DNA from: Phycisphaerales bacterium
GTDB taxonomy: Bacteria > Planctomycetota > Phycisphaerae > UBA1845 > Fen-1342
Direction: 5' to 3'
Length of the DNA stretch: 22,627 nt
NCBI GenBank assembly: GCA_016795025.1
Contig: JAEUIR010000051.1
Coordinates: 1 to 22,627 of the forward strand
A model generated the notes under the pieces. The model was not told where the DNA came from. It saw only the letters and a list, made by a program, of their open reading frames with translations, and did no database searches. Positions 2,200-22,627 of this stretch are shown piece after piece. The translations under genes were made by a program, and so were the position numbers. Within the stretch, counting starts at the first letter, position 1. Each line of letters starts with the position of its first letter.

Positions 2200-3390
2200 A
2201 TGAAGATCGCTTCGGCAGTGGTGAATCTGGTCGGGACTGAAAACACGGTCCGGCACCTCGTCATGCAACTCCGGCAGGAGCTGGGTGACGGCCCGATCGA
2301 TTTGCTCATTTTGTTCGGCAGCGCGCATTTTGAAGGCGACTTGGAAAAAATCGCGCCGGAGCTGCAAGAAGCGCTGTCACCGCGGACGTTCATCGGTTGC
2401 ACGGCCGACGCGGTGATTCGCGACGACCAGGAATACGAGCATCAACCGGGGCTTGTCGCGTGGGCGGCGCGCATGCCCGGAACTCGCTGCGTTTCGTTTC
2501 ATTTGTCGCAGGATGATCTAGCGCGCCTGGACACGCCTGAGGCGCTGCGCGAACACCTGAATGTCCCGGCGGATGAGAGTCCATACTTCGTGCTGCTGGG
2601 CGATCCGTTCAGCGCGAATCCGATACAGTTGCTCGATCGCATCAACACGGCTTATCCGAGGCGACCGGCGATCGGCGGCATGGCATCAGCCGGCGAGCAG
2701 CCGGAGCAAAACGTGCTGGTGTTTGAGGGGCAGACGCTGCGGCATGGTACCGTGGGCGTGGCGCTTTGGGGCAATGTCGAAATGGACACGATTGTGTCGC
2801 AGGGGTGCCGGCCGATCGGGCGGCATCTGGTTGTGACCAAAGCGGAGAACAACATCATTCACCAACTCGGCGGCAAGCCAACGCTCGCAGCCGTCAATGA
2901 GATTTTGAATGAATGCCCACAAAGCGACATTGATCTGGCCAAAAAACGCGGACTGTTGATCGGTTGCGTGATTAACGAATACATGAAGACGTTTGGGTCG
3001 GGCGATTTTCTGATTCGCAACCCGATCAGCATCGACGAAAAATCCGGCGCGATGGCCGTGAACGACATGATGCGCACGGGGCAGACGGTGCAGTTTCATG
3101 TGCGCGACAGCCAATCGGCGGCGGAGGATTTGCAGTATTTACTATCGGTGAAAGCGACAGAACCGGCCGCCGGCGCGCTGTTGTTCAGTTGCAACGGCCG
3201 CGGCTCGCGCTTTTTTCCCGATCGACATCACGACGCGCGGGCAGTGGTTGACGGACGCTCGCAAATGCCGGTGGCCGGGTTTTTCTGCGCCGGCGAAATC
3301 GGTCCGGTGGGCAACCGCAATTTTTTGCACGGGTTTACGGCGAGCATCGGATTCTTTCGCCCAACAAACGGCGATCATGGCGGGGGATGA
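2200..3390 (+). CDS. Stand-alone FIST (N+C) sensor domain protein
   Basis: MKIASAVVNLVGTENTV...LLILFGSAHFEGDLEKIAPEL...GVALWGNVEMDTIVSQGCRPIGRHLVVTKAENNIIHQLGGKPTLAAVNEIL...ALLFSCNGRGSRFF...AGFFCAGEIGPVGNRNFLHGFTASIGFF. The C-terminal GFFCAGEIGP...N.LHGFT block is the FIST_C signature. The start is moved from 1666 to the ATG at 2200, which has a purine-rich RBS (aagaaggg) 11 nt upstream; the upstream part of the ORF is antisense to the GNAT gene. Confidence 0.7.
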   Translation: MKIASAVVNLVGTENTVRHLVMQLRQELGDGPIDLLILFGSAHFEGDLEKIAPELQEALSPRTFIGCTADAVIRDDQEYEHQPGLVAWAARMPGTRCVSFHLSQDDLARLDTPEALREHLNVPADESPYFVLLGDPFSANPIQLLDRINTAYPRRPAIGGMASAGEQPEQNVLVFEGQTLRHGTVGVALWGNVEMDTIVSQGCRPIGRHLVVTKAENNIIHQLGGKPTLAAVNEILNECPQSDIDLAKKRGLLIGCVINEYMKTFGSGDFLIRNPISIDEKSGAMAVNDMMRTGQTVQFHVRDSQSAAEDLQYLLSVKATEPAAGALLFSCNGRGSRFFPDRHHDARAVVDGRSQMPVAGFFCAGEIGPVGNRNFLHGFTASIGFFRPTNGDHGGG

Positions 3391-3763
3391 TGGACGAAAG
3401 CGTTTTCGGCCGAAGCAGCGGATTCGAGCCCGCGCGGAGTTTGATGCGGTTTTTCGGAACGGCGTTCGCGTGCAGAATGAATCGCTCACCGTGTGGTTAT
3501 TGCCGGCGGCGGCGGGGCGAGTGGAAACGCGACTTGGGATTGTCGTTTCCCGCAAGCACGGCGGCGCGGTCGCGCGCAATCGATTGAAGCGGCTGATTCG
3601 GGAGGCCTTCCGCATGTCGGCGCGTGAGTTGCCGATCGCCAGCGATATTCTCTGTCAGCCGCGCGCCGGCCGGAAACTCTCGCTCGACGAGGCTTGCGCT
3701 TCGCTGGTGCGCCTCGCGCGGGCGGCGCTGGGCCGGGGTTCGCGGGCTCCACAGGGGCATTGA
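3377..3763 (+). CDS. rnpA: Ribonuclease P protein component
   Basis: MAGDDGRKRFRPKQRIRARAEFDAVFRNGVRVQNESLTVWLLPAAAGRVETRLGIVVSRKHGGAVARNRLKRLIREAFR. This is the classic RnpA RNR-motif region (R-L-G-x-x-V-S-[KR]-K-x-G-x-A-V-x-R-N-R-x-K-R-x-x-R-E). Size is ~128 aa. The start ATG at 3377 overlaps the FIST stop (ATGGCGGGGGATGA). Confidence 0.85.
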   Translation: MAGDDGRKRFRPKQRIRARAEFDAVFRNGVRVQNESLTVWLLPAAAGRVETRLGIVVSRKHGGAVARNRLKRLIREAFRMSARELPIASDILCQPRAGRKLSLDEACASLVRLARAALGRGSRAPQGH

Positions 3764-3769
3764 CGGCAC

Positions 3770-4921
3770 ATGAGCACGAACGGCGCGACGGAACGCCCGA
3801 TTCTAATTCTCTCCGCGTCCGCCGGCGCCGGGCATATGATGGCGGCGCGCGCGATTGAACAAGCGCTGCGCGCGGCGGCGCCGGGGGTGTCGATCGAGGT
3901 TCTGGACGTGCTGAGCGCGGCGAGCGGCGCTTTTCGGCGAATGTATGCCGGCGGGTATTTGTCGCTGGTGCGCCGCGCTCCGGTTCTGATGGGCGTGCTA
4001 TATGAGCGCATGGATCAACCCGTCCCAAACATCGCGGACCGTGCCCGCCTGCTGATTCAGAATGCCCACGCACCGCGCATCGCGCGCTGCATTCGCGCAC
4101 ATCGGCCGCGCGCGATTGTGAATACGCATTTTCTCTCCGCGGAAATCGTGTCGCAGATGCGGCGCAGCGGGGCGCTCAATTGCCCGCAGGCGACCGTAAC
4201 GACGGACTTTGAGACGCACCGCCTGTGGGTGCAAGAGCCGACCGAGCGCTACTTCGCTGCCAGCGAGCAAGGGCGCGTCCTGCTGCGGCGCTGGGGCGTG
4301 GACGATCTGCGCATCCGAGTAACCGGAATTCCTGTAATGGATGCGTTTCGCCCGACGGCGAATCAGAGCGCCGTGCGAACTGAGTTAGGGCTTGATCCGG
4401 CCCGGCCGGTTGTGCTGTTGCTGTGCGGGGGTTTTGGTGTCGGCCCGGTCGCGCTGGCCTTTCAGGAGATTCTGGCGCTGTTGGATACGCAGTTGGTGGC
4501 CGTGTGTGGTCGCAACGAAGCGCTGCGCGAGCGGTTGGCACTGATGTCGAAAGGGGCGGAGTCGCGGTGCAAGGTCGTCGGGTTCACGAACGAGATGCAT
4601 CGATACATGCAAGCGGCCGATGTTGCGGTTACGAAGCCGGGCGGCCTGACATCGAGCGAGGCGCTGGCGTGCGGTTTGCCGATGGTCGTGGTGAATCCAA
4701 TTCCCGGGCAGGAGTCGCGCAACAGCGATTTTCTTCTCGAAAGCGGCGCGGCGATCAAAGCGAACGACGCGTGCCTGGTTGGACCGCGAATCCGCAGCTT
4801 ACTCTCGTCGCCGACACGACTTGCGGCGATGCGCGATGCCGCGCTTCGCGAGGCCCGTCCGGATGCGGCGAGGCAGATCGCCGAGGCGGTCGGGGAAATG
4901 TGCGGTGCGTCGGCCGTTTGA
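3770..4921 (+). CDS. GT28 glycosyltransferase of the UgtP / MGDG-synthase family (processive diacylglycerol glycosyltransferase-like)
   Basis: Colinear similarity to B. subtilis UgtP recalled from memory: ILILSASAGAGHMMAARAIEQAL vs VLILTANYGNGHVQVAKTL; VTTDFETHRLWVQEPTERYFAASE...VTGIPV vs [24 protein letters not shown]...ITGIPI; GGFGVGP vs GGGLGLGP; VTKPGGLTSSEALACGLPMVVVNPIPGQESRNSDFLLESGAAIKAND vs ISKPGGLTVSEALAMNLPMIIFDPIPGQEEANTAFLTESGAAVRADD. The start is 7 nt after the rnpA stop. Confidence 0.8.
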   Translation: MSTNGATERPILILSASAGAGHMMAARAIEQALRAAAPGVSIEVLDVLSAASGAFRRMYAGGYLSLVRRAPVLMGVLYERMDQPVPNIADRARLLIQNAHAPRIARCIRAHRPRAIVNTHFLSAEIVSQMRRSGALNCPQATVTTDFETHRLWVQEPTERYFAASEQGRVLLRRWGVDDLRIRVTGIPVMDAFRPTANQSAVRTELGLDPARPVVLLLCGGFGVGPVALAFQEILALLDTQLVAVCGRNEALRERLALMSKGAESRCKVVGFTNEMHRYMQAADVAVTKPGGLTSSEALACGLPMVVVNPIPGQESRNSDFLLESGAAIKANDACLVGPRIRSLLSSPTRLAAMRDAALREARPDAARQIAEAVGEMCGASAV

Positions 4922-4990
4922 CATTCGGCGGGTGGGTTCAAACAATTGACAACCCGCAAACCGCATTGCCGGGATTGAACGGAGGTCGAT

Positions 4991-5731
4991 GTGCGCTGGC
5001 TTGTCGCCATCCCCGCTTACAACGAAGAGCAGCACCTTCCGGCCGTGCTGGATGCCGTGCGCGAATACACGCGGCACATCGTCGTTATCGACGACGGCTC
5101 GACGGACGCGACCAGCGCGATACTCGACGCGCGGCCGGAGATTCAGCGCGTCACGCATGGAATCAACCTGGGATATGGGCGCAGTGTGATCGATGCATTT
5201 GATTACGCCGCGGCGCATCATTTCGATTGGGTTATCACGATGGATTGCGACGAGCAGCACGAGCCGGCGCAGATTCCGCATTTTGTCGCGGAAATGACGC
5301 GCGATCGCGCGGATGTTATCAGCGGCTCGCGCTATCTGATTCCGCATCCGCAAGATGACGCGGCGCCGCTCGACCGGCGCCGCATCAACCACACGATCAC
5401 GCGCGTATTGATGCAACGACTGGGTTTGCGGCTGACAGACTCGTTTTGCGGTTTCAAGGCGCATCGCGTGTGCGCGATGCAGCGGCTTCGCCTGAGTGAA
5501 ACCGGCTACGCGTTTCCGCTGCAATTCTGGGCGCGGTGCGTGCAGGAAGGATTGCGCATTACGGAGATTCCCGTCAGGCGGATTTATCGCGATGCGTCGC
5601 GCGTCTTCGGCGGCATGCTCGATGATCCCGAACATCGCCTGCGACACTACTTGGAAGTTCTCGAACGCACCATTCAGCAATCGCCCGTGCCGTGCGGCGC
5701 GCGACGCGCAGCATCGGCCGCGTGTCATTGA
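4991..5731 (+). CDS. GT2 glycosyltransferase, Dpm1/Ppm1-like (polyprenyl-phosphate sugar synthase family)
   Basis: GTG start at 4991 with a GGAGG RBS at 4981-4985. VAIPAYNEEQHLPAVLDAV...HIVVIDDGSTDATSAIL (GT2 DxD-region), MDCDEQHEPAQIP (DAD-x-QH-like motif) and ISGSRY all match the Dpm1-type GT2 pattern. The last ~25 residues are low-complexity, so the true C-terminus may be functionally shorter. Confidence 0.7.
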   Translation: MRWLVAIPAYNEEQHLPAVLDAVREYTRHIVVIDDGSTDATSAILDARPEIQRVTHGINLGYGRSVIDAFDYAAAHHFDWVITMDCDEQHEPAQIPHFVAEMTRDRADVISGSRYLIPHPQDDAAPLDRRRINHTITRVLMQRLGLRLTDSFCGFKAHRVCAMQRLRLSETGYAFPLQFWARCVQEGLRITEIPVRRIYRDASRVFGGMLDDPEHRLRHYLEVLERTIQQSPVPCGARRAASAACH

Positions 5732-5817
5732 GCTCGCCCGTGTTGCTGGATCGCAGTCGTCTGAAGACTCCGGCGGGACCGTTGGGGGTTCTCTGCGAAC
5801 CGTCGGCGCTGCGCGAA

Positions 5818-7257
5818 ATGCTCGACGGCAGTGTTGAGGAGTTGCGCGGCAAACCGGAAACGACGCTTGTGAGCGGAAGGCCGCTCAGCGGTTGGCGGAG
5901 CGAGCTGCGTGACGCATTTGGCCTGGTCGAGCCTGCGATCGTCACGGGGCATCAGGTCGAGTTCTACCATGCGGGGGTTTTCGCGAAGGTGGTCGCGGCG
6001 CATCATCTGGCGGAGCGAAGCGGTGGAAGCGCGCTGTTCGTCGGCGTGGACAGCGATACGCCCAAAACCGCGCGCTTGACGACCACGCGCATTTCGCATG
6101 GCGCGGCGCAGCGTGTGGAGGTATTGATTCCCGGCGTTGATATGGACGTGTCAATGGAGGCGCAGGAGGCATTGCCGCGCGAGCAGTGGCTGGAGTTCTT
6201 CGCGCGCGTCGCTGATCTATCGCCGGATTACGAATCGAGCGGGCTTCGCGCATTCGCCGACGGATGGCTGGGCGGCGCAGCGGAGCGCGTCGCGATTTCC
6301 GCGGCGATGTCGCGCGGTCACGAAGGCCTGCAAGACGCTCTGGGCGTGAAGCCTACGCCGCATGTGCCGGTTTCCAGGCTGTGTACGACGCCGGCTTTTT
6401 CCGCGTTTTTTGAGCAAATCGCAATGAACGCCGCACGATTCGCAAAGAATTACAACGCTGCGCAGACAGCGTATCGAGCGCGCCACCGCGTGAGATCGGA
6501 TCAACGTCCTGTTCCGCCGCTGGTCGTGGATTGCGATCAGGTGGAACTGCCGTTTTGGATGATTGACGGCGCAGGCCGGCGAAAGCGGCTGTCATTGGAT
6601 CGCGCGCGCGGTCTGCGAGTAGAAGGCGTTTCAGCCGATATTTCTATTCAAAACGCGCTACGCGGCATTCAGGAAGGCACGCACCGAATTCGGCCGCGAG
6701 CGCTCACGCTGACGCTTTTTTTGCGTTTGTTCGTGGCGGATGCGTTTATTCACGGCATCGGCGGCGCGAAATATGATGAGATTACGGACGAGCTCTCGCG
6801 CGAGTTTTTCGGCGCGGCGGCCGCGCCGATCGCGTGCGTCAGCGCGACGCTAAGCCTGTTCGGCGAGCAGCAGGCATTGGTACCGGATGAGCTCGCGGCC
6901 GCGAGGCTCGCCGTTCGTGATCTGCGGCACAATCCCGAACGGTATGTGAAAGGCATCGACGAGGGGCTGATTGCGGAGCGCGACGAGTTGCTGCGCGAAG
7001 CGGCTCGGCTTCGAGCGAATGACAGGCGAAATCGCGCGGCTCGGCGAGCGATTCACCGGTCGCTGCGGGCCGTACACGATCGCATGCTGGCGGTCCAACC
7101 TTGGTTGGGTTCTTCGCTGACTCAGCGGGTCGAAACGCTGCTTTCTCGCAGCCGCGACGAAAAGTTACGCGCAGATCGTGAGGTTTTTTACGGCTTTCAT
7201 TCGCTTTCGGCCTTGCGAGAATTGGTGAGCGCGATCCGCGGAGCGATCGGCTCGTGA
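5818..7257 (+). CDS. Conserved protein with BshC-like motifs (putative bacillithiol-type cysteine-adding enzyme family) and a C-terminal coiled coil
   Basis: AIVTGHQVEFYHAGVFAKVVAAHHLAE...ALFVGVDSDTPKTARL resembles the BshC N-terminal GQQxGLFxGPLYxxxK ... PVFWIAGEDHD pattern. IRPRALTLTLFLRLFVADAFIHGIGGAKYDEITDEL resembles the BshC LRP...FIGGxxEIxYW block. The C-terminal ~110 residues are strongly helical (RDELLREAARLRANDRRNRAARRAIHRSLRAV...), as in the BshC coiled-coil domain. The motifs are recalled from memory, so family assignment is tentative. The start could alternatively be GTG 5740, TTG 5743 or GTG 5692; the ATG at 5818 was chosen. Confidence 0.45.
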   Translation: MLDGSVEELRGKPETTLVSGRPLSGWRSELRDAFGLVEPAIVTGHQVEFYHAGVFAKVVAAHHLAERSGGSALFVGVDSDTPKTARLTTTRISHGAAQRVEVLIPGVDMDVSMEAQEALPREQWLEFFARVADLSPDYESSGLRAFADGWLGGAAERVAISAAMSRGHEGLQDALGVKPTPHVPVSRLCTTPAFSAFFEQIAMNAARFAKNYNAAQTAYRARHRVRSDQRPVPPLVVDCDQVELPFWMIDGAGRRKRLSLDRARGLRVEGVSADISIQNALRGIQEGTHRIRPRALTLTLFLRLFVADAFIHGIGGAKYDEITDELSREFFGAAAAPIACVSATLSLFGEQQALVPDELAAARLAVRDLRHNPERYVKGIDEGLIAERDELLREAARLRANDRRNRAARRAIHRSLRAVHDRMLAVQPWLGSSLTQRVETLLSRSRDEKLRADREVFYGFHSLSALRELVSAIRGAIGS

Positions 7258-7402
7258 GCGGTAACGGGCGCCGAATTACTGCCGCGATTTTCGCCGCGTC
7301 TTCTCGCAATTAGCGTTTTTTCTCCGGAATTCCGCAGTTGTCTCCGCTATGTGCCGGCAGCAAGATACGCGCACCCAGCAGGTCAAATTTGTGGAGCGGC
7401 GA

Positions 7403-9976
7403 ATGGCGGACAATTCAGCGGGGAATTCCGAGCGCGCCCAGCGAATTGAAGCGATCGTGCGGGAATACATCGAATCCATCGGCGACGCTGCCGCGCCGCG
7501 GATGGAGGAGTTGGTGAAGGCTCACCCCGATCTCGCGCCCGACCTTGAAAATGAGTTGCGCGTCGCGGTCCATCAAACACTGAGCGACTCGACCAACGCG
7601 GCCCCGAACTCAACCACCGTGCTGGCCGCGCCGCCTGGGGTGTCCTCGTCGCCGTTGCCGCCGCCGGGCACGTTCGACGGCTATGACATTGTGAGCGTGC
7701 TGGGGCAAGGCGCGCAGGGCATCGTGTACAAGGCGATCGAGCATCGGCCGCGACGAAAAGTCGCGATCAAAATGCTGACGGACGGCATGCACGCGACGGC
7801 GGAGCGTCGGCAACGCTTTGATCGCGAGATCGAGATCATCGCCCGATTGCAGCATCCGAACATCGTCTCGGTGCTGCGCAGCGGCGAAACGCCATTTCGG
7901 CAGCCGTATTACGTCATGGACTATGTCCGCGGCGCGTCGCTCACGCGTTATGTCCGCGATCAGCAGCTCACAGTGCCCCAGGCGCTGCGGCTGTTTGTGG
8001 AAGTATGCGATACCGTTCAGGCCGCGCATGCCCAGAGCATCGTGCATCGCGATCTCAAGCCGTCGAATATTCTGGTCAGCCTGCACGGTCAGCCGCACGT
8101 GCTGGATTTCGGGCTTGCGAAGGCATTCGGCGAGTCTGAGATGGCGGGCTTGTCGCGAACGTATGAAGTTCGCGGCACGGCGCAATACTTGTCGCCGGAG
8201 CAGGCTCGCGGGGAAAACCACGCGCTCGACGCGCGCAGCGACGTGTATTCGCTGGGGGTGATCCTGTTTCAAATCCTGACGGGAGAGTTTCCGTACCCGG
8301 TGATCGGCTCCTTTGAGAGCGTCTTGCACAACATTCGCGAAACGCCGCCGGCGGCGGCCATGCGGGCGTGGTCGATGGACGGCGGAATCGTCCAGCGCGG
8401 CGAGCATGGCGAAATTCGCAAGGTATGCCCGATCGATCAGCGATTGAATCGCATCGTGATGAAATCCTTGTCCAAGGATCGAAATCGGCGCTATGCGAAT
8501 GCGGGTGAGTTGGCGGCGGACATTCGGCGTTATCTGGCGCATGAACCGTTGGAGGCGGTAGGCGACGGGCCGGTTTTTCGTTCTCGCGCCGGATGGCAGC
8601 GCATGATTCGTCGGCAACCAATCATCGGCTATTTCGCGGCGATGCTCGCGACAGTGCTTGTCGCGCAGTCGCTATTTGTGGATATCGTGTTCTATCGCAC
8701 ATCGCTGAATCAGTTCTTTGAGCAGCGCGCAGTGAAATTTCAGCAGGCTCCGCTAGCGCGAAACGCGCGGCTCGCGCATGTTCAGATTTTGGAAATGCAA
8801 TCCACCCAAAGTGTGATGGAGCTTGCTCGAACTCAGGGAATTTCGATCCCGGAGAGTTTGTCGCCGGCAGAATTTCGGAGCAAAGAGTGGTATCGCATTC
8901 GCGAATTACACGGGCAATTGATGCTGCGCCTGGCTGAGAAAATGCGTGATTGGCGGCCTCGCGCGGTGGTGTTCGACATTTTCTTCAATTCAGCCCGACC
9001 GGAGCAGGACGCGGTGTTCGTGCAGGGCGTGGAAGCGCTGCGCGTGAAAGGCGTGCCCGTGGTAGTCGCCGTCGCGCAGCAACCGCTCGCCGTGAATTCG
9101 ACGCTGGAATCCAGCGAGAACATTCTGCCGAAGGTGTTTCCGGGGGGCGCGTCGACGCATTTGAACGAGCGGCCGTGGCTCTATCACCTGGCCATTCATC
9201 GCGTGGGCCATCGCTCGTTTCCGTCGATCGCGCTGGCGGCGTTTCTGGCGGCGAATTACGCCGATTACACCTACACGCTCACGCCCTATGAAGACAAGCT
9301 GTTGGTAGGGCTGTCGCCGCGCGAGTCGTCGCTGCTGTGGGGTTCGTTGATTCCAATCGCCAGATCGCTGGTGATCGAAGTTGGCGACCATGTTCAACTG
9401 CGAACCGCACCGAAGAAACCAGACGGCACTGCCGCGGGCGATGTTGTTTCCCAATTGCTGATCATCCCGCCGCGACAAAAGTGGTTCGCCACGAGCACGC
9501 TCCCTTACGACACGGTATTTGAAAAGAGTGAGTTGGAGCTGCGCCGACTGTTTGACGACCGTTACGTGTTGATCGGCGATACCGATGGCGATTCCAAAGC
9601 GGGTTATGCGGAGTCGGACGAGGAATACCGCGGATACCATGTACATGCGGTGGCGCTGGAGCAATTGGGGGGCAAGCCGGCGGATGATCGCGTTGTGCTG
9701 GAGCGACGCCTGATCTCGGCCACGGGGTCGGTGACATATCCCGCGCTGGCGGCCGTATGTCTGATCGCCTGTCTGTTCGGTGCGCGCCAGGAAGGCCGGC
9801 CATGGGCGCGCCTGCTGACGGGCGTCGGCGCGTCGCTGGTCATTTTTTGCATTTCGCTCGGACTGGTCGCGATTGCGAATATCGACTTAAATCCGTTTGT
9901 ATTCATCGGCGCATGGTGGATGGCAATGGAACTGGCGGCGGCCGTGCGGCGCACGGCGACGGCCGAGGTCATCTAA
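7403..9976 (+). CDS. Hanks-type Ser/Thr protein kinase with a C-terminal transmembrane CHASE2 sensor module
   Basis: Kinase motifs are all present: LGQGAQGIVYKA (Gly loop), VAIKML (VAIK), HRDLKPSNILV (catalytic loop), DFGLAKA (DFG), LSPEQARG (APE-like) and DVYSLGVILFQILTGEFPY. A TM helix follows (IIGYFAAMLATVLVAQSLFVDIVFY), then a ~300 aa extracytoplasmic region with the CHASE2-like block RPRAVVFDIFFNSARPEQDAVFVQGVEALRVKGVPVVVAVAQ, then 2-3 C-terminal TM helices (YPALAAVCLIACLF, LTGVGASLVIFCISLGLVAIANI, FVFIGAWWMAMELAAAV). The start is set at the ATG at 7403, preceded by GGAG; the ORF-track start at 7349 adds 18 poorly fitting residues. Confidence 0.8.
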   Translation: MADNSAGNSERAQRIEAIVREYIESIGDAAAPRMEELVKAHPDLAPDLENELRVAVHQTLSDSTNAAPNSTTVLAAPPGVSSSPLPPPGTFDGYDIVSVLGQGAQGIVYKAIEHRPRRKVAIKMLTDGMHATAERRQRFDREIEIIARLQHPNIVSVLRSGETPFRQPYYVMDYVRGASLTRYVRDQQLTVPQALRLFVEVCDTVQAAHAQSIVHRDLKPSNILVSLHGQPHVLDFGLAKAFGESEMAGLSRTYEVRGTAQYLSPEQARGENHALDARSDVYSLGVILFQILTGEFPYPVIGSFESVLHNIRETPPAAAMRAWSMDGGIVQRGEHGEIRKVCPIDQRLNRIVMKSLSKDRNRRYANAGELAADIRRYLAHEPLEAVGDGPVFRSRAGWQRMIRRQPIIGYFAAMLATVLVAQSLFVDIVFYRTSLNQFFEQRAVKFQQAPLARNARLAHVQILEMQSTQSVMELARTQGISIPESLSPAEFRSKEWYRIRELHGQLMLRLAEKMRDWRPRAVVFDIFFNSARPEQDAVFVQGVEALRVKGVPVVVAVAQQPLAVNSTLESSENILPKVFPGGASTHLNERPWLYHLAIHRVGHRSFPSIALAAFLAANYADYTYTLTPYEDKLLVGLSPRESSLLWGSLIPIARSLVIEVGDHVQLRTAPKKPDGTAAGDVVSQLLIIPPRQKWFATSTLPYDTVFEKSELELRRLFDDRYVLIGDTDGDSKAGYAESDEEYRGYHVHAVALEQLGGKPADDRVVLERRLISATGSVTYPALAAVCLIACLFGARQEGRPWARLLTGVGASLVIFCISLGLVAIANIDLNPFVFIGAWWMAMELAAAVRRTATAEVI

Positions 9977-9992
9977 CGTTTGGGAGCAGAAA

Positions 9993-10733
9993 ATGCGGCG
10001 AGCTTGCATCATCGTGGCGATGGCTGTTGGATTGATGGCCGTCGGCTGCGCACACGATCGAAAGTTCATTGTGGTCAAGGCTCCGGAAGGCATGGGGTTT
10101 GACACGGAGTTCTTCGCGACGACGGCGGCCGTCCCATCGTCCGGCTGGTTCATCACGGGCGAAGTTTTCAAGGGTTCAGGCAACTCGGTGATGTTCATTG
10201 ATTACACCACCGGCTCAACGTATGGGACTGAAATCACGACGCCCGCGACGTATTCCGCCACCAAACCAACGCAAATGCACGTGATCGGCGGAGGGTTTGA
10301 CTATCACGTCATGCTTGTTCCCGAACCGGGTTTCACCGCGACGATGCAATTGACGTCGCCTTCATCGCCGGCGACTTTTGGCGGGAATTACAATTTTGTT
10401 TACATCCATGGGAATTGGCCGACGACAACCACGACGCACACCACCATCGCGGCTTCCGGCTGTTCGATTCTGGTGCTTGGCCGCGTAAATCCGGTCACGA
10501 CTACGACGTTTGACCAGGTTTTCCTGCTGCGGCAATCCACCGCGGGCGGCGGCGTGAGCATTTCCAAGAATGGCGTTCCCGGGTCATATCTGCTCTCGAC
10601 GATCCGCCACTACGTCGAGGTCATCACCACGACGCCCGTCGCGGATTTTCCAATCCAGAATCTGCCGGCTCTGGATCAGGAGCGTTTCTCAAAATCGGAA
10701 GGCCTGGCGCTGCTGACCAGGACCGGACCGTGA
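9993..10733 (+). CDS. Secreted lipoprotein, paralog 1 of a three-member tandem family of unknown function (Thr-rich core GNWPTTTTTHTTIAASG)
   Basis: Starts at the ATG at 9993 with a GGGAG RBS at 9982-9986, 16 nt after the kinase stop. The N-terminus MRRACIIVAMAVGLMAVGC is a lipoprotein-type signal (lipobox-like AVGC). It shares the core ...NYNFVYIHGNWPTTTTTHTTIAASGCSILVLG with the two downstream paralogs. Confidence 0.6.
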   Translation: MRRACIIVAMAVGLMAVGCAHDRKFIVVKAPEGMGFDTEFFATTAAVPSSGWFITGEVFKGSGNSVMFIDYTTGSTYGTEITTPATYSATKPTQMHVIGGGFDYHVMLVPEPGFTATMQLTSPSSPATFGGNYNFVYIHGNWPTTTTTHTTIAASGCSILVLGRVNPVTTTTFDQVFLLRQSTAGGGVSISKNGVPGSYLLSTIRHYVEVITTTPVADFPIQNLPALDQERFSKSEGLALLTRTGP

Positions 10734-10815
10734 CGATCGTCATTCGGCACGCGCGGCGCTTGATCGCCAAGCGCCGCGCTGCGATGATTGCGGCACACCT
10801 TTTCGGAGTGTCTGC

Positions 10816-11496
10816 ATGATGGGGTCGATGCTTGTCGCCGGGTTGCTCACGCTGCATATGTTGCCCGTGCCGGAAGCGCGAGAGATGATCGATGCTGCGC
10901 AAGTCGCTCCAACCGCTCAAATTCTCGGCTACTTTGAATACAAGCCTGACGGCGTCAGCTTCGAATTCAACCGGCTCGGCACACCCACGGCGTTTCCATT
11001 TGACTCGGTTCAATCGATTCAAAAGCCGACGCAGATTCGCTGTACATCTTCAACATGGGATTACACGCTGCTGATTGTGCCGAAATCCGGGCAACAGCCC
11101 ACGCTAAGAATCGAAAAGGACAACGGTACGCCGGGGCGAGCGATTTTCGGGTCCGGCGTGGATTACATCATTCTCAGCGGCCGCTGGCCGGTGATCGAGA
11201 CGGAGCACACGACTTCCGCGGCGGCCGGCGTGGTCATTGTGGTGTACCCGTTCCAGGACAGCGGCAAGAATTTTGATCGCTATGTGATGTTGCAGCGGAC
11301 CGCCAGCGATGGCATGCTGAAGGCGCGATCGAAAGTGGGGTCGCCGCCGGATCAACAACTGGCTCTGCGCGGAGCGTGCGTAGCGCTTGCCTCCGACGAG
11401 GTGCGGCACTCGCATTTGATGGACGACGAAGCGGTGGACAAATCAGTGGCGAAGATGCGCGGTCTGGGCGCGCTGACGCTGACAATTCCGCCGTAA
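10816..11496 (+). CDS. Secreted protein, paralog 2 of the tandem family (core GRWPVIETEHTTSAAAG)
   Basis: ATG at 10816 with GGAG 8 nt upstream. The hydrophobic N-terminus MMGSMLVAGLLTLHMLPVPEA is a signal-peptide candidate. The core VDYIILSGRWPVIETEHTTSAAAGVVIVVYP aligns with paralogs 1 and 3. The upstream block TQIRCTSSTWDYTLLIVPKSG aligns with paralog 1 TQMHVIGGGFDYHVMLVPEPG. Confidence 0.6.
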   Translation: MMGSMLVAGLLTLHMLPVPEAREMIDAAQVAPTAQILGYFEYKPDGVSFEFNRLGTPTAFPFDSVQSIQKPTQIRCTSSTWDYTLLIVPKSGQQPTLRIEKDNGTPGRAIFGSGVDYIILSGRWPVIETEHTTSAAAGVVIVVYPFQDSGKNFDRYVMLQRTASDGMLKARSKVGSPPDQQLALRGACVALASDEVRHSHLMDDEAVDKSVAKMRGLGALTLTIPP

Positions 11497-11617
11497 TGGC
11501 GATCGGTCGGCTCGGGTCTCATTCACCTGACCAGGCGCGGCCGCATGCTTTTGGAGCTCCGTGTTGTTCTTGTAGCGGCGTATTCTCGGTCAGGCTTTGT
11601 TTGGATTGGAATTGACG

Positions 11618-12238
11618 ATGCTGCGAGCGATCGGACTTTTGATGCTGACGGGGTTGATGGGGGGCATCGCGGGCTGTCCTGGAGCTCTCGATTTGTCGGA
11701 TTGCTGCGACGGTCCGGCGGGATTGGCGACTTTCGCAGTGGATTTTTCGTCGCTCACATCGTCACGGTCGTTTGATGTTGCACTGCCGTCGCGTGTGACA
11801 CTCACAGGCGCCGGCGTGGATTGCGTGATCTGGGTGCTGCCGGCGGACACAGCCGGCGCGAGCGTGATCGTCGAACCAAACGGAAGGGCGCGAATCACTG
11901 GAAACTACTCGGCGATCTACATATCTGGTAACTGGCCTGTGGTGGAAACGACGCACACGACAGCGGCCGCGTCGGGCTTGGTCGGACTGGTGCTGCCGGA
12001 GGCCGCCGAGGGTGGTGAATACGTATACAACGCGGCGCTGCTGGCGGCCGGCGGCACTTTGGGTGTCGGTCCCGCGGCGGATCAGCCGATCGCGCTCGGG
12101 CAGTTTCGTTTCATGACGAATCAGGCGGTGGGGGAGGCCACAGCGCTTTCATCCGTGGAGCCAGGCGGCGGGGCGGTATCGACTCAGATCGCGGCCGTGC
12201 TGGCACAGATCGAATCGTTGGAGGCTCGCGTGGAGTGA
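11618..12238 (+). CDS. Secreted lipoprotein, paralog 3 of the tandem family (core GNWPVVETTHTTAAASG)
   Basis: ATG at 11618; the ORF track starts at a TTG at 11597. The N-terminus MLRAIGLLMLTGLMGGIAGC has a lipobox-like IAGC. The core GNYSAIYISGNWPVVETTHTTAAASGLVGLVLPEA aligns with paralogs 1 and 2. The C-terminal 20 residues are helical (STQIAAVLAQIESLEARVE). Confidence 0.6.
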   Translation: MLRAIGLLMLTGLMGGIAGCPGALDLSDCCDGPAGLATFAVDFSSLTSSRSFDVALPSRVTLTGAGVDCVIWVLPADTAGASVIVEPNGRARITGNYSAIYISGNWPVVETTHTTAAASGLVGLVLPEAAEGGEYVYNAALLAAGGTLGVGPAADQPIALGQFRFMTNQAVGEATALSSVEPGGGAVSTQIAAVLAQIESLEARVE

Positions 12239-18357: not shown

Positions 18358-20433
18358 TCATTCGAGGCGCGCGGCTCGGTCCGCGCGATATTCGGTTAGT
18401 CGCGCACTAATGCGTGCCCCAAGTCGCAGGTCGCCGCCACAACGGTCGAGCGCGCTCGTTGCCGTTCGGATGGCCTCGTCGAAACGGCCGACCTCGGCAT
18501 ACGCGGCGGCGAGAACATCTAATACGGCTGCGTTCGGGACCGACATCGACGCTGCCGCGGACTCCGCGAGCTTTACGGCGGCGGCGCCGTCGCGCACCTG
18601 TTGATTCGGGGCGGCGGCAAGAAACCATGCAAGACGAAGTTGCAGTTCGAAATCGGAGGGGTTGGCGTTCGCGCCACGCCGCAGCGCGTCTACTGCCGCC
18701 GGCCAGTCTGCGCGTCGTCGGTGCGCCTCGGCGAGATTCGACCAGGGCGCCGGGTCGAACGGATCGGCCTCGACCGAGCGTTGCAGATAATCGATTGCAG
18801 ATTCGATGTCGCGCGCCATGAGCTTCGCGGTTCCCATCGCGGCCAATACGTGCGGTACGTTGGATTGGCCGGCAAGCGCAATTTCGTATTCGGCAATCGC
18901 GTTCGCTGGTTGTCTGCGTTGCGACCAGACCTGTCCCATGCCGAAATGCGCGGCTGCTTTGCCGGGCTGAATTTCCAGTGATTTTTTCAGGTAATGCTCG
19001 GCTGTATCCGCCTCCCCAATGTTGGCGAGCGTGATGCCGGCGTTCGCGTAGCTCGTGGCCAACTCGGCCTGGGCGGGAAAGGGCGTCGGCCAATTCGCGG
19101 GAGCGGCGACCAGGACGCCGACGGCGATCGCGCCCCAAAGCGAGGCGGTTTCGCGACATCGCACTCGACGCACAATTTCCACGATTGCGTGGCTGGCCAA
19201 AGGCATCAACAGCACCGCCAGCGGATAGCGATAGCGCGCCAGCACAAAGAACGCCGCTGTGGACAGCAGAAATATGGCCGCCATCAGCACAATCAGTCGC
19301 GTTTCCGGCCACTTCGACCAACTGAGCCAGGCGCCGGCAACTGCCAATGGCAGCAACAAGCCGAAGTGCGTGATCGGCGACAGAAGACCGAGCAGGACGC
19401 TATGGTCTGCATAAAACGCCTGATCCTCCGAATCAGGAATTTCATAGGCGTTGGTCGCCAGGAACAGTTTGTGCGCGGTGAGCCGCAGCCAGGGCAACGG
19501 CTCCGCGCGGATGAACTTAAACGCCTCTGCGTACCAGAAGCGCGATACTTCGCGCGGCGACAGTTCCCGTCCGGCCGCAGCCTGAGCAATGCGTATCGCG
19601 TCGATGCGTTCATAACGCGTTTGTCCCCGCCCGGCGCTCAGCGCCACATATGATCCGTTCGCGCTCGGGTTGTTTCCGATGTAAAAATTCGGCCCGGACT
19701 GATAGGTGGTGATCAGCGCCTGGCCGCACACGACGTAGTTGCGCCAGGCGACGATGCTGAGAATCGCGACGGCCCCGAGGGTCAGTGTGCCGGCACGCGT
19801 CAGGCGCGCCCCAACGCGGTTTGTATGGCTTGGCGAGATCGTGATTGCAAGCCAGCCGGCAACGACCGGGATTAGCAACAAAGCGTTCTCGCGCGTCAGC
19901 GCGAGCGCGGCGATCGTCATGCCCAGCGCGCCGCAGACGATCAACCCCGTGGATTGTCGCAAACGCGAGATGAGCCAGAGCATCGTCGCGAATCCGAGTT
20001 CATCCAACACGGTTTTTTGAATCAACGCGCCGAGGAAGATCGAAGGAGGATAGATCGCCAGCAATGCTCCGGCGAGCACACCGACCGGCGTGGAGAACAA
20101 TCGTCGGCTCGCGGCGGCTAGCAGCACGCAGGAAACAGCTCCAACGGCGGCCTGCACAAATCGGATCGCGATGGCGTCGTCCCCGACGAGGCGCATGGTC
20201 GCCGCGAGAAAATACGGGTATAGCGGCGCTTGATAGAATGGTTCCGAGCCAAGCCAGTCACCTCCCGCGATTTGTCGCGCCCATTGCAGATACGCTTCGG
20301 AATCGATAACGGGGAAGCGCACCATCGGAACATCGCGAATTTCCGCGATGAATGCAGCGCGCGCGAGCAGCGCGAGCAGAAACACACCGGCCAGCCAAGC
20401 CCACCACGGCAAATCGCGCTGTCGAGCGTCCAT
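18358..20433 (-). CDS. PMT_2-family (ArnT / GT39 / GT83-like) integral-membrane glycosyltransferase with a C-terminal TPR domain
   Basis: From the ATG at 20433: MDARQRDLPWWAWLAGVFLLALLARAAF...FPVIDSEAYLQWARQIAGG...EPFYQAPLYPYFLAATMRL. The D-x-E-A-Y loop after TM1 and the FY..PLYPY pattern are characteristic of ArnT/PMT-like GT-C enzymes. There are ~11 hydrophobic segments through residue ~470. The C-terminal ~220 residues are TPR-like (AEHYLKKSLEIQPGKAAAHFGMGQVWSQRRQPANAIAEYEIAL...). The upstream 83 codons of the 774 aa ORF are Arg-rich and overlap the upstream gene, so they were excluded. The stop of the upstream gene and this start are arranged TGA-t-ATG. Confidence 0.6.
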   Translation of the reverse strand: MDARQRDLPWWAWLAGVFLLALLARAAFIAEIRDVPMVRFPVIDSEAYLQWARQIAGGDWLGSEPFYQAPLYPYFLAATMRLVGDDAIAIRFVQAAVGAVSCVLLAAASRRLFSTPVGVLAGALLAIYPPSIFLGALIQKTVLDELGFATMLWLISRLRQSTGLIVCGALGMTIAALALTRENALLLIPVVAGWLAITISPSHTNRVGARLTRAGTLTLGAVAILSIVAWRNYVVCGQALITTYQSGPNFYIGNNPSANGSYVALSAGRGQTRYERIDAIRIAQAAAGRELSPREVSRFWYAEAFKFIRAEPLPWLRLTAHKLFLATNAYEIPDSEDQAFYADHSVLLGLLSPITHFGLLLPLAVAGAWLSWSKWPETRLIVLMAAIFLLSTAAFFVLARYRYPLAVLLMPLASHAIVEIVRRVRCRETASLWGAIAVGVLVAAPANWPTPFPAQAELATSYANAGITLANIGEADTAEHYLKKSLEIQPGKAAAHFGMGQVWSQRRQPANAIAEYEIALAGQSNVPHVLAAMGTAKLMARDIESAIDYLQRSVEADPFDPAPWSNLAEAHRRRADWPAAVDALRRGANANPSDFELQLRLAWFLAAAPNQQVRDGAAAVKLAESAAASMSVPNAAVLDVLAAAYAEVGRFDEAIRTATSALDRCGGDLRLGARISARLTEYRADRAARLE

Positions 20434-20434
20434 A

Positions 20435-22198
20435 TCAGCGCGATCCCAGGAAGCCGCGAATCGCCGGAATTGCTCGCTCCGCGCGGGCGCGATCGACCGC
20501 CACCAACTTGACGTCGTGCGAATCGACCTCAGCAACCGATTGATCCACGTTAAATGTGATGATCCGTCCGTTGGGTTGCCAATCCCACTGACATGCCACG
20601 CGGCGTCGGCCATCGGCGTCCGGGGGCAAAGGCCGTAACCGCATCGTCGGGAGGCTTTGCCCCCACGGCCCGATGGTTTCAAGCAGCCATTCGCCGTCGT
20701 CCTGATTCGCCGCCCAGGCCTGCGCGATCATTTCCATTGGCGGACTAATGAAACAGTCAGTCGGGATAAGTTTTACCGTGCGGTTGAGTCGGCCAAGCTG
20801 AATTGTGTGCTGAATCGTCCCATCCAGACCGCGCTTGGTGCGAAGCGACGTCGGCGTGCCATCCGCCGATTCGCCTTGCCAGGCATTCGAGTATTCGTAG
20901 CCGTGCTCATCCATTGTCCATCGTTCGGACTCGTGGCCCTGCGGGAATATTGTCAGATTCTGGCCGCGGTATCCAAGTCGGGGATTGCGGCTCTCGGCGC
21001 TGCGCTCCATTACTTGCAGCCGCAAGCCGGTACGCGACTCAAGCAGGTAATCGCGAGACAATTCGCGTCCCCACCAAGCCACCGGGCCCTGTTGCGTCAA
21101 CAGCTTCGACAGCGCCATACCGGCGGAAATCGACGCGTCAACATCTGGCGCGCAATCAGCCTCGCGAAAGGCGATCGCTTCGGCAAGGCGTTTCAACGAC
21201 GACTCTGCCTGAGCCGCATTTCGGGGATTAGCGCGGGCGATCAGCAGAACGGCGTTGCGAGGGTCGCGCCAGACGAGGCCCGCGCTGCTGAATGTGTCGT
21301 CCTGTTCCACAGCCGGGTTCGGCATGATGGCCATTGAAAGGCCGTCTGCCCGGTGCAACTCGTCCGGGGTCGGCAGATCGACCCACGGCGCGTGCAGGGT
21401 GGATGCGGCCACGTCGCGCAGAATTTCCGCGGCGTTGCGGCCGGGGGCCATCCACGTTCGAAATATGTCGATGGCGTGCGTCATTTCGCCGTTTTCGAGA
21501 AAGCCAACATGAAGTCCGGCGAATTCCTCGCGGGCAGCGACCACGCATGCGTCCGCCGGCAAACGCGCTGCAAGTCCAACCTGTGCCCAAGCTTCGGCCG
21601 GGGATTTTGCGACGGCTTCGTCGTCGACGCGCACGGCGCGGCAAATCGCGTCGAGCAGGTCAAGATCGCCGAGCGTCAGATCGGTGAGCGGCACATATTC
21701 CACAACCAGAATGTCGCCGCGTGGCGTGCAGGCCACCCGGATGACGCTGTCCTGATCGAATCCGAATCCGCGGTGCTCGACGCGCAGGCGGCGCGTGGCC
21801 TGCACCCCCCAGAAGCGCCCGATTCGCGCCGGGCGATAATCGCTGAAAGGCAGCGCGTCGCGCTGCGCCCGTTCGCGAATCCACTCGCGCGGCGAGCGAA
21901 ACGACGAGCCTTGCGCATACGAAAACGTAATCTGCCGCTCGATGGAGATGCGCTGGCGGCCGATACCCTGTTGTCTGGTGGGCAGCACGAAGCGCCCAGG
22001 AGCTTTCGGGTTGGCGATCCAGCCGATCGGCGGGCGAACGACCAGCGGCGTGTTCTCGACGCGCTGCTCAGCGGCCAAGGCGCGCGAGGCGCTGACTTGC
22101 CACCAGGCCAACCCCAGCGTGCTCGCCAGCAGCACAGCGCTTAGGATGAGCAGGCGAGCGGGCTTGCCGGGGCGCGTACCGGAATAGACTTCCCACAT
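20435..22198 (-). CDS. Large exported/membrane-anchored protein of unknown function (588 aa), translationally coupled to the PMT_2-TPR glycosyltransferase
   Basis: From the ATG at 22198: MWEVYSGTRPGKPARLLILSAVLLASTLGLAWWQVSASRALAAE, a signal-anchor or signal peptide. The remainder is soluble-looking with no motif I recognise. The stop lies 1 nt before the start of the downstream glycosyltransferase. Confidence 0.5.
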   Translation of the reverse strand: MWEVYSGTRPGKPARLLILSAVLLASTLGLAWWQVSASRALAAEQRVENTPLVVRPPIGWIANPKAPGRFVLPTRQQGIGRQRISIERQITFSYAQGSSFRSPREWIRERAQRDALPFSDYRPARIGRFWGVQATRRLRVEHRGFGFDQDSVIRVACTPRGDILVVEYVPLTDLTLGDLDLLDAICRAVRVDDEAVAKSPAEAWAQVGLAARLPADACVVAAREEFAGLHVGFLENGEMTHAIDIFRTWMAPGRNAAEILRDVAASTLHAPWVDLPTPDELHRADGLSMAIMPNPAVEQDDTFSSAGLVWRDPRNAVLLIARANPRNAAQAESSLKRLAEAIAFREADCAPDVDASISAGMALSKLLTQQGPVAWWGRELSRDYLLESRTGLRLQVMERSAESRNPRLGYRGQNLTIFPQGHESERWTMDEHGYEYSNAWQGESADGTPTSLRTKRGLDGTIQHTIQLGRLNRTVKLIPTDCFISPPMEMIAQAWAANQDDGEWLLETIGPWGQSLPTMRLRPLPPDADGRRRVACQWDWQPNGRIITFNVDQSVAEVDSHDVKLVAVDRARAERAIPAIRGFLGSR

Positions 22199-22310
22199 GC
22201 TGGCGAATGATAGCGTGTGACGCGGTTCGCGCCCGGTACGTCGATGTGTCGTGGTCGGCGGCGCGGTTTCGCTGATAGGCTGTTCGCGCGGGCGGTTTGT
22301 TGAAATAAAT

Positions 22311-22627
22311 TTATCGTGCGGAGGGGCCGTCCAGCCGCACTGCAAACTGCACGTTTTGAAATCCAGCGCCGACGCACTCGTCCATCGCGCGAACGATGTG
22401 CTTCCAGCGCACCGAGGATTCCGCGCCGATCACCACCGGGTTCGTCGCATCCGCGCCGGCGGCGCGCTTGCCTTCCAGGAATTTCCGCAACTCGTCGAAT
22501 GCGTTGGTGCCGATCGGCTCGCTGTTCACGTAAATGCCGCAAGACTTGCCGGCGTCGATATTTTGAAGTCCGATCTTGACGGCTGGAATGATGTCAACCG
22601 CCGCGCCGGCTCCGGGGCCGCTGCGCG
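22311..22627 (-). CDS. exbD: ExbD/TolR family biopolymer transport protein (C-terminal part; the gene starts beyond the right edge)
   Basis: Extending the listed 72 aa ORF upstream in frame gives ...AGAAVDIIPAVKIGLQNIDAGKSCGIYVNSEPIGTNAFDELRKFLEGKRAAGADATNPVVIGAESSVRWKHIVRAMDECVGAGFQNVQFAV. This matches the ExbD periplasmic domain pattern (IYVN...V..EL...L......V.I.AD..V.....V.VMD....AG...V.F.). Confidence 0.6.
   Translation of the reverse strand, partial: RSGPGAGAAVDIIPAVKIGLQNIDAGKSCGIYVNSEPIGTNAFDELRKFLEGKRAAGADATNPVVIGAESSVRWKHIVRAMDECVGAGFQNVQFAVRLDGPSAR

Follow-up and report, generated by a model that had tools for sequence, protein, structure and literature searches.

What would a protein with the architecture of BshC do beside a glycosyltransferase of the Dpm1 type? 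This question is raised by a 22.6-kb contig (~62% GC) from a Phycisphaerales metagenome-assembled genome (MAG), analysed over its whole length and hereafter referred to as the window. Three successive open reading frames (ORFs) on its + strand, at positions 3770-7257, encode a glycosyltransferase of family 28 (GT28), a glycosyltransferase of family 2 (GT2) and a BshC-fold protein. The GT2 gene (4991-5731, + strand) codes for a 246 amino-acid (aa) protein, Dpm1/ArnC/PpgS-like and devoid of transmembrane helix, while the gene following it, named here gene 3 (5740-7257, + strand), codes for 505 aa from a GTG start. The spacing is 69 nucleotides (nt) between the GT28 and GT2 genes, and gene 3 starts 8 nt past the GT2 stop. 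This is the layout described in an initial annotation of the window, namely three consecutive + strand genes with gaps of at most 69 nt. That annotation started gene 3 at an ATG in position 5818, a choice that would remove the conserved N-terminal block; the alignment of homologues and the NCBI gene call of 505 aa support the GTG at 5740 instead. The product is 100% identical to the NCBI entry “hypothetical protein JNG88_07215”.

A conserved pair of a GT2 and a BshC-fold protein

Exact-protein look-ups and a scan of species genomes provided 87 related loci for examination. In 84 of them, the gene immediately upstream of the gene 3 homologue, in the same orientation, encodes a GT2. Among the three others, one is interrupted by a contig end just upstream, one harbors a partial GT2, and one is truly without GT2. 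The two genes are tightly packed: the GT2 stop lies within ~40 nt of the gene 3 start in most loci, and the genes overlap in several annotated loci. Since the GT2 is found in 84 of the 87 loci and GT28 in ~18 only, the conserved unit is the GT2 together with the BshC-fold protein, a phylum-wide two-gene module. The three-gene pathway put forward in the initial annotation is therefore retained for its GT2-gene 3 link, but not for GT28, which is confined to one clade and has rnpA alongside. No gene besides the GT2 recurs next to gene 3 across clades in the loci examined. As stated initially for this cluster, bshA, for the GT4 GlcNAc-malate synthase, and bshB, for an LmbE-type deacetylase, are both missing: neither is located within the window, and neither recurs within ±7 kb of the pair in 85 loci. 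Within the pair, identities range over 44-66% for the GT2 and 27-45% for its partner, the GT2 being the more conserved of the two. In locus L019, an ORF that seemed to fuse the GT2 to its partner arises from read-through out of frame, and no true fusion exists.

A HMMER scan over 1.84 billion representatives assigns to the gene 3 family 3,661 clusters at 50% identity with E ≤ 1e-3, and 2,331 with E ≤ 1e-30. Scanning species genomes, one for each species, yields relatives in at least 571 of them. All of the 80 best loci belong to Planctomycetota, mostly to Phycisphaerae, a few of them being labelled Schlesneria, Planctomycetaceae or Brocadiaceae. The named database entries of the family are always “hypothetical protein”, and the term “BshC-like” was not found in the literature searched. 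A cultured carrier is Phycisphaerae bacterium RAS1, in which the gene is RAS1_02080. The member found in a Brocadiaceae MAG (locus L080, 6568-8373) is 601 aa long, possesses an N-terminal extension, and displays GHE in place of the GHQ motif described below. To note, it is flanked by membrane genes and by a PAS/GGDEF-like gene, the latter label being read from the translation and not from a Pfam scan.

The GT2 matches PF00535 (Pfam, 1.2e-25) and exhibits a GT-A fold with a DXD motif, nearest to the DPMS/ArnC type. Its matches among PDB sequences are ArnC (2.6e-9) and DPMS (5.5e-8). DPMS, ArnC and PpgS are its best matches in both sequence and structure, and AglJ is also among the best in sequence, which agrees with the polyprenyl-phosphate-sugar-synthase label that it had first received. 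It stays below all the NCBIfam equivalog cut-offs concerned, with 95.5 bits vs 370 for PpgS, 65 vs 325 for AglJ, and 43 vs 529 for ArnC. The DXD motif takes the form DCD (D85-C-D87) and is accompanied by GSRY and FCGFK, the residues being invariant across orthologues. The length of the protein ranges from 246 to 257 aa across loci. Neither the GT2 nor its gene 3 partner possesses a hydrophobic or transmembrane helix. The sequence of the GT2 favours a polyprenyl phosphate as the acceptor group, its fold leaving room for a small phospho-acceptor.

The last 22 codons of the GT2 gene (window 5663-5728, + strand) encode a Cys-rich tail that is variable and disordered, residues 236-246 displaying a predicted local distance difference test (pLDDT) value below 50 in the AlphaFold2 model. 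Among 120 orthologues (P0368-P0487), Cys accounts for 10.2% of the last 22 residues vs 1.7% of the rest; two Cys or more are found in 101 of them, and at least one in all 120. This tail could be a lipidation, metal or carrier site. It could also, along with the basic gene 3 partner, take part in membrane binding.

Fold, motifs and possible chemistry of the gene 3 protein

The gene 3 protein was modelled with AlphaFold2 from 39 sequences and without templates (pLDDT 94.1, predicted template modelling score 0.89). A Foldseek search of the PDB with this model ranks BshC (PDB ID 4WBD) first, with an E-value of 1.8e-13 over 518 aligned columns and TM-scores of 0.53/0.50. The model exhibits the BshC architecture, with a Rossmann core interrupted by connecting insertions and a helical C-terminal domain; the core is of the Rossmann-type catalytic fold of class I aminoacyl-tRNA synthetases (HUP), and the C-terminal third of the protein is entirely helical. 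The structural alignment covers 392 residues with BshC vs 267 with LysRS. Following this model, the gene 3 product represents a family of its own, built like BshC from a class-I-synthetase-like Rossmann core and then a helical C-terminal domain. A distinct family sharing the BshC fold was the second alternative of the initial annotation, and a fold hit found in the absence of any PF10079 or NCBIfam match corresponds to it. The surface chemistry of the two families differs: the gene 3 family has a median isoelectric point (pI) of 9.3 and a net charge of +8, BshC a pI of 5.4 and a net charge of -18.

Conservation was analysed over 238 sequences, the most distant of which share 29% identity with the window protein. 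Some 55 positions (~55) are conserved at 93% or more. They comprise G70-H-Q, H77-x-G79-V-x-A-K83, D104-x-D106, Y238-N, several Arg, F336-x-H-G-x-G-G-A-x-Y-D346, C366 and N398-P-x-R. The three motifs quoted in the initial annotation are all present in gene 3 and belong to this set. Motif 1, GHQVEFYHAGVFAK (G70-H-Q...H77-x-G79-V...K83; 5947-5988, + strand), joins the first Rossmann strand to the first helix, covering the end of the former and the start of the latter; the strand spans residues 66-72 and the helix 78-94 in the model. Its residues G70, H71, G79 and K83 are conserved at 100% and H77 at 99%. Motif 2, LFVGVDSD (6034-6057, + strand), forms the second Rossmann strand (97-103 in the model) and ends in D104 (99%) and D106 (100%). 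Motif 3, FIHGIGGAKYD (F336-I-H338-G-I-G-G-A-K-Y345-D346; 6745-6777, + strand), is a glycine-rich loop after the last core strand (335-338 in the model). G339, G341, G342 and Y345 are conserved at 100%, D346 at 99% and H338 at 98%, while K344 varies between K, R, Q and T.

By its place in the predicted secondary structure, and not by superposition, H77-A-G-V would occupy the HIGH position of class I synthetases. Likewise, motif 3 is, by position, a candidate phosphate-binding loop where KMSKS would be expected. The canonical KMSKS itself is missing, an H-G-x-G-G-x-x-Y-D loop with a variable Lys standing in its place. The location of the H-x-G and of the glycine-rich loop in the model suggests that the protein binds a nucleotide.

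A basic, synthetase-like protein might also recognise tRNA, another RNA or a protein and, with the GT2, add an aminoacyl and/or a glycosyl group to this macromolecule. The median pI and the several invariant arginines would suit such a role, and synthetase paralogues are known as modifiers, GluQRS acting on tRNA and EpmA on EF-P. However, the nearest relatives of the GT2 take lipid phosphates or small molecules as substrates, and neither RNA nor protein; moreover, no tRNA, EF-P or RNA-modification gene is recurrently linked to the pair. Furthermore, the C-terminal domain matches the helical domain of BshC and not an anticodon-binding domain, as reflected in the alignment lengths obtained with BshC and LysRS. 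Modification of a macromolecule is thus quite improbable.

The reading that we prefer, with a confidence slightly short of an even chance and by analogy, is that gene 3 encodes a BshC-fold ligase acting on the product of the GT2. The scheme is modelled on BshC and MshC, which follow BshA and MshA, and on ArnD, which acts on the lipid-linked product of ArnC. The GT2 would move a sugar from a nucleotide sugar onto a phosphate-bearing acceptor, most likely polyprenyl phosphate at the inner membrane face, a small soluble phospho-acceptor being less likely. The gene 3 protein would bind a nucleotide via the invariant H77-x-G79 and H338-G-x-G-G loops, activate a carboxylate, most plausibly that of an amino acid, and then join it to the sugar made by the GT2. 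With its positive net charge, the family would dock more readily on anionic membranes or on substrates linked to a phospholipid. The resulting product would serve the envelope or be a small metabolite. Precedents exist for Dpm1-like synthases that are devoid of membrane helices and are encoded beside a partner gene, namely Ppm1/Ppm2 and PpgS/Rv3632 (PMC3485146), and they speak in favour of the proposed ligase. The fold match, the enzyme-like pattern of conserved positions, the size and range of the family, its coupling to the GT2, the nature of this GT2 and the charge count in its favour as well.

Several results weigh against such a ligase. The gene 3 protein has no match in Pfam or NCBIfam, PF10079/thiol_BshC included, even at E ≤ 10, so the comparison with PF10079 proposed in the initial annotation is negative; nor does Pfam detect BshC in any of 39 aligned members of the family. 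The family profile finds neither BshC nor a synthetase among all PDB sequences. With hhalign, the comparisons of the family with B. subtilis BshC (a query confirmed to be identical to PDB 4WBD), with a 23-sequence BshC alignment, and with use of the 238-sequence family alignment give E-values of 0.087-0.44. The BshC hidden Markov model (HMM) scores 247 family members no differently from shuffled and reversed controls. The equivalence of motifs 1 and 3 to HIGH and KMSKS is positional, as mentioned above. The L080 member stands without a GT2 neighbour, and in the loci examined the pair has no consistent link to a deacetylase, a flippase or a GT-C transferase. Finally, the analogy leans on BshC, for which the reaction has never been reconstituted in vitro (PMC5790435), and the comparison of gene 3 with BshC has limited mechanistic weight for that reason.

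The BshC family is not detectable in the gene 3 protein by sequence, whereas the match of its predicted fold is strong. The BshC resemblance noticed initially thus holds for the fold, with the Foldseek E-value given above, and not for sequence statistics, since Pfam, NCBIfam, hhalign and HMM comparisons are all negative. A structural match had been accepted there as the alternative to an HMM match, and its finding keeps the resemblance from being refuted. The same searches bear heavily on the idea of an ordinary, dispersed bacillithiol (BSH) locus, in which gene 3 would be a divergent bshC with bshA and bshB elsewhere. The fold match alone speaks for it. The 39 members without a PF10079 or NCBIfam BshC match, the HMM scores at the level of the controls, a net charge opposite to that of BshC, and an obligate partner that is a GT2 and not a GT4 all speak against it, as does a published survey predicting no BSH pathway in Planctomycetes (PMC6282198). 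This explanation is close to refuted and scarcely credible.

A low-molecular-weight thiol could still arise by another route, in line with the first alternative of the initial annotation. The GT2 would stand in for BshA and produce an amino-sugar glycoside in soluble form; its amine would be freed by a deacetylase whose gene lies elsewhere, and the gene 3 protein would then add cysteine. We hold this route to be unlikely, and equally so the bacillithiol- or mycothiol-like redox buffer with which it would provide Planctomycetota. The lack of a membrane helix in both proteins is consistent with it, and the pair is phylum-wide, as expected of a core metabolite pathway. Nevertheless, the GT2 groups by sequence with PpgS, AglJ, DPMS and ArnC and not with the GT4 enzymes BshA and MshA, and the gene 3 family is basic where the cytosolic BshC is acidic. 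The pair has no recurrent link to a deacetylase of the LmbE type, a thiol S-transferase or a disulfide reductase. A DinB/MST-family gene beside the pair in strain RAS1, considered as a thiol link, is found in 1 of the 87 loci and was judged a coincidence. The data give no hint of a preference for cysteine.

The gene 3 protein may also have lost its ligase chemistry and serve as a scaffold, membrane tether or regulator of the GT2, in the manner of DPM2/3, Ppm2 or Rv3632. Helix-less Dpm1-like subunits are indeed known whose neighbouring gene encodes a partner able to bind and stimulate them (PMC3485146), the GT2 and gene 3 are very closely adjacent, and the basic surface could bind anionic membranes. 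That no in vitro activity has ever been seen for BshC itself (PMC5790435) is also in keeping with a non-catalytic partner. Yet the gene 3 protein has no transmembrane helix, unlike Ppm2, Rv3632 and DPM3, its conserved 505 aa enzyme fold is large for a tether, and its L080 member stands alone. In addition, His, Asp and Arg residues and Gly-rich loops, all invariant, occupy in the model the topological place of a synthetase active site and resemble a ligand or catalytic pocket. A purely non-catalytic role therefore appears improbable, to about the same degree as the thiol route.

The preferred ligase reading may be extended to a wider proposal, which we regard as possible but rather unlikely. 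Planctomycetota would hold a third, independently assembled version of the scheme, familiar from mycothiol and bacillithiol, that combines a glycosyltransferase with a synthetase-like ligase. In this version, a Dpm1-like GT2 would work with a BshC-fold enzyme carrying a HIGH-like motif for nucleotide binding, and the product would be an aminoacylated sugar not observed before, either a new low-molecular-weight thiol or a polyprenyl-phosphate sugar or glycolipid bearing an amino acid and destined for the envelope.

GT28 and the other neighbours of the pair

The GT28 gene (3770-4921, + strand) encodes a 383 aa protein and is a clade-specific neighbour, outside the conserved core. The protein matches PF06925 (1.6e-21), the N-terminal domain of monogalactosyldiacylglycerol (MGDG) synthase, and PF04101 (1.1e-10), the GT28 C-terminal domain. 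Its best PDB sequence matches are a processive diacylglycerol (DAG) glucosyltransferase (9wde, 1.3e-40) and plant MGD1 (4wyi, 1.5e-29), and its top NCBIfam match is diglucosyl-DAG synthase (3e-63). With 214 bits, the latter is well below the equivalog cut-off of 500. These domains and matches agree with the UgtP/MGDG-synthase label given initially; because of the missed cut-off, GT28 is classed as an enzyme of the glycolipid-synthase type (MGDG-synthase/UgtP-like), its sequence not fixing the exact specificity.

The ~18 loci with GT28 upstream of the GT2 all belong to the clade nearest the window. In the window, GT28 is preceded by genes for a FIST-domain protein and the RNase P protein (rnpA; both within 2200-3763, + strand). 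The order FIST-rnpA-GT28-GT2-gene 3 is kept in one Phycisphaerae clade (L005, L007, L010, L012, L013 and others), and rnpA overlaps GT28 in L005. Since a housekeeping gene such as rnpA takes part in the same tight array, the adjacency of GT28 is weak evidence of a common function; GT28 is a lineage-specific neighbour and not part of the core module. A promoter-like site, TTGACA-17-AACAAT (4918-4946, + strand), is located in the 69-nt gap between GT28 and the GT2. It is a consensus match only, at 10 of 12 positions, in a scan of the region that returned three sites vs 1.3 expected. It fits the GT2 and gene 3 being a transcription unit of their own, of which it may be the separate promoter.

Membrane-plus-TPR proteins are encoded directly upstream of the pair in L003 (7010-9142) and L001 (5484-7604). 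In the window, a PMT_2 (GT-C) and TPR membrane protein is encoded at 18358-20682 (- strand), 11 kb downstream of the pair, and is not orthologous to those of L001 and L003. Enzymes of the PMT_2/GT-C type would use polyprenyl-phosphate sugars. As the membrane and TPR proteins near the pair are neither mutually orthologous nor recurrent, a GT-C link was dropped as evidence.

In a second clade (L037-L083), the genes found on the same strand, ~1.6-4.4 kb downstream of the gene 3 homologue, in 23-31 loci code for a small DUF1844-like protein, a membrane protein of the rhomboid type whose tail is TPR-like, and an aminotransferase of class IV, these labels being read from sequence and not from a Pfam scan. 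Missing from the clade of the window, these genes were judged to be local synteny and not members of the module.

Directly after the pair, the window encodes an 875 aa Ser/Thr protein kinase carrying a CHASE2 sensor domain at its C terminus (7349-9976, + strand), which is not syntenic in related loci. It is followed by three tandem paralogous ORFs (9990-12238, + strand; ~9990-10733, 10816-11496 and 11597-12238). Each harbors an N-terminal hydrophobic segment, and they have in common the core G(N/R)WP..ET.HTT.AA(S/A)G at 23-29% identity; they have no Pfam match and no counterpart among the 87 related loci. Two ORFs on the - strand, of 636 aa (20435-22345) and 360 aa (431-1513), also have no Pfam match. 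There is an overlap, as listed, between the 636 aa ORF and the 5' end of the PMT_2 ORF, and probably the start codon of one or the other was wrongly called. These two ORFs, the tandem paralogues, and a GNAT and a zinc-ribbon protein of the window are all without counterpart in any related locus.

Comparison with known systems

The closest structural relative is BshC (YllA; 4WBD, PF10079), which bacillithiol synthesis requires and which is the putative enzyme adding cysteine to GlcN-malate. Both proteins assemble a Rossmann core with insertions and then a helical C-terminal domain, and their sizes are comparable (505 aa for gene 3, 539 aa for BshC). Three similar blocks are co-linear: GHQ in gene 3 for GQQ in BshC, a strand with an acidic end, and F-I-x-G-x-G-x-x-x-Y. 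The differences are as marked, with 10-12% identity, no HMM or profile-profile signal, and a basic family facing an acidic one. At the putative HIGH position, an invariant H-x-G distinguishes the gene 3 family from BshC, which displays G-P-L-Y there. The family has a Dpm1-like GT2 as fixed neighbour, whereas BshC is partnered by BshA (GT4) and BshB, and gene 3 homologues are found in Planctomycetota, which are not known bacillithiol makers (PMC6282198).

With LysRS (1IRX) and the other class I synthetases, the predicted gene 3 structure has in common an H-x-G at the start of the first helix and a glycine-rich loop after the last core strand. It differs from them by the lack of detectable sequence similarity, of a canonical KMSKS and of an identified anticodon-binding domain, as well as by a linkage to a glycosyltransferase instead of translation genes. 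MshC (3C8Z), the cysteine:GlcN-inositol ligase, provides a functional parallel, being class-I-synthetase-like, acting downstream of a glycosyltransferase, and joining an amino acid to an amino sugar. However, MshC is clearly a CysRS paralogue by sequence, which the gene 3 family is not, and their structural likeness is at the superfamily level only; besides, its glycosyltransferase is the GT4 MshA and not a GT2.

On the side of the glycosyltransferase, the helix-less GT2 resembles Ppm1-D2 and PpgS of the Ppm1/Ppm2 and PpgS/Rv3632 pairs, with a partner gene alongside (PMC3485146). In the Arn pathway (ArnC-ArnD-ArnT), the product of the GT2 is modified while still lipid-linked. Unlike in these partnered Dpm1-type systems, the partner here is a soluble 505 aa protein of BshC fold, neither a membrane protein nor a deformylase, and the pair is not consistently flanked by a GT-C transferase or a flippase.

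What is new in this comparison is a BshC-fold, class-I-synthetase-like family that sequence searches do not detect, with a different fixed partner and a different surface chemistry. A published survey reports no documented or predicted low-molecular-weight thiol pathway in Planctomycetes (PMC6282198), and the GT2-gene 3 module is a candidate for such a route in this lineage. Alternatively, it may be a new modification of envelope sugars in a phylum with unusual envelopes. Pfam and NCBIfam offer no model for the 3,661 clusters of the family, the definition of which would provide an annotation for a “hypothetical protein” of at least 571 species genomes, and cultured carriers such as RAS1 make experiments feasible. 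Because it is more synthetase-like in its motifs than BshC, with which it shares its predicted fold, and has a fixed partner, the gene 3 family could reveal the chemistry of BshC by a fresh route.

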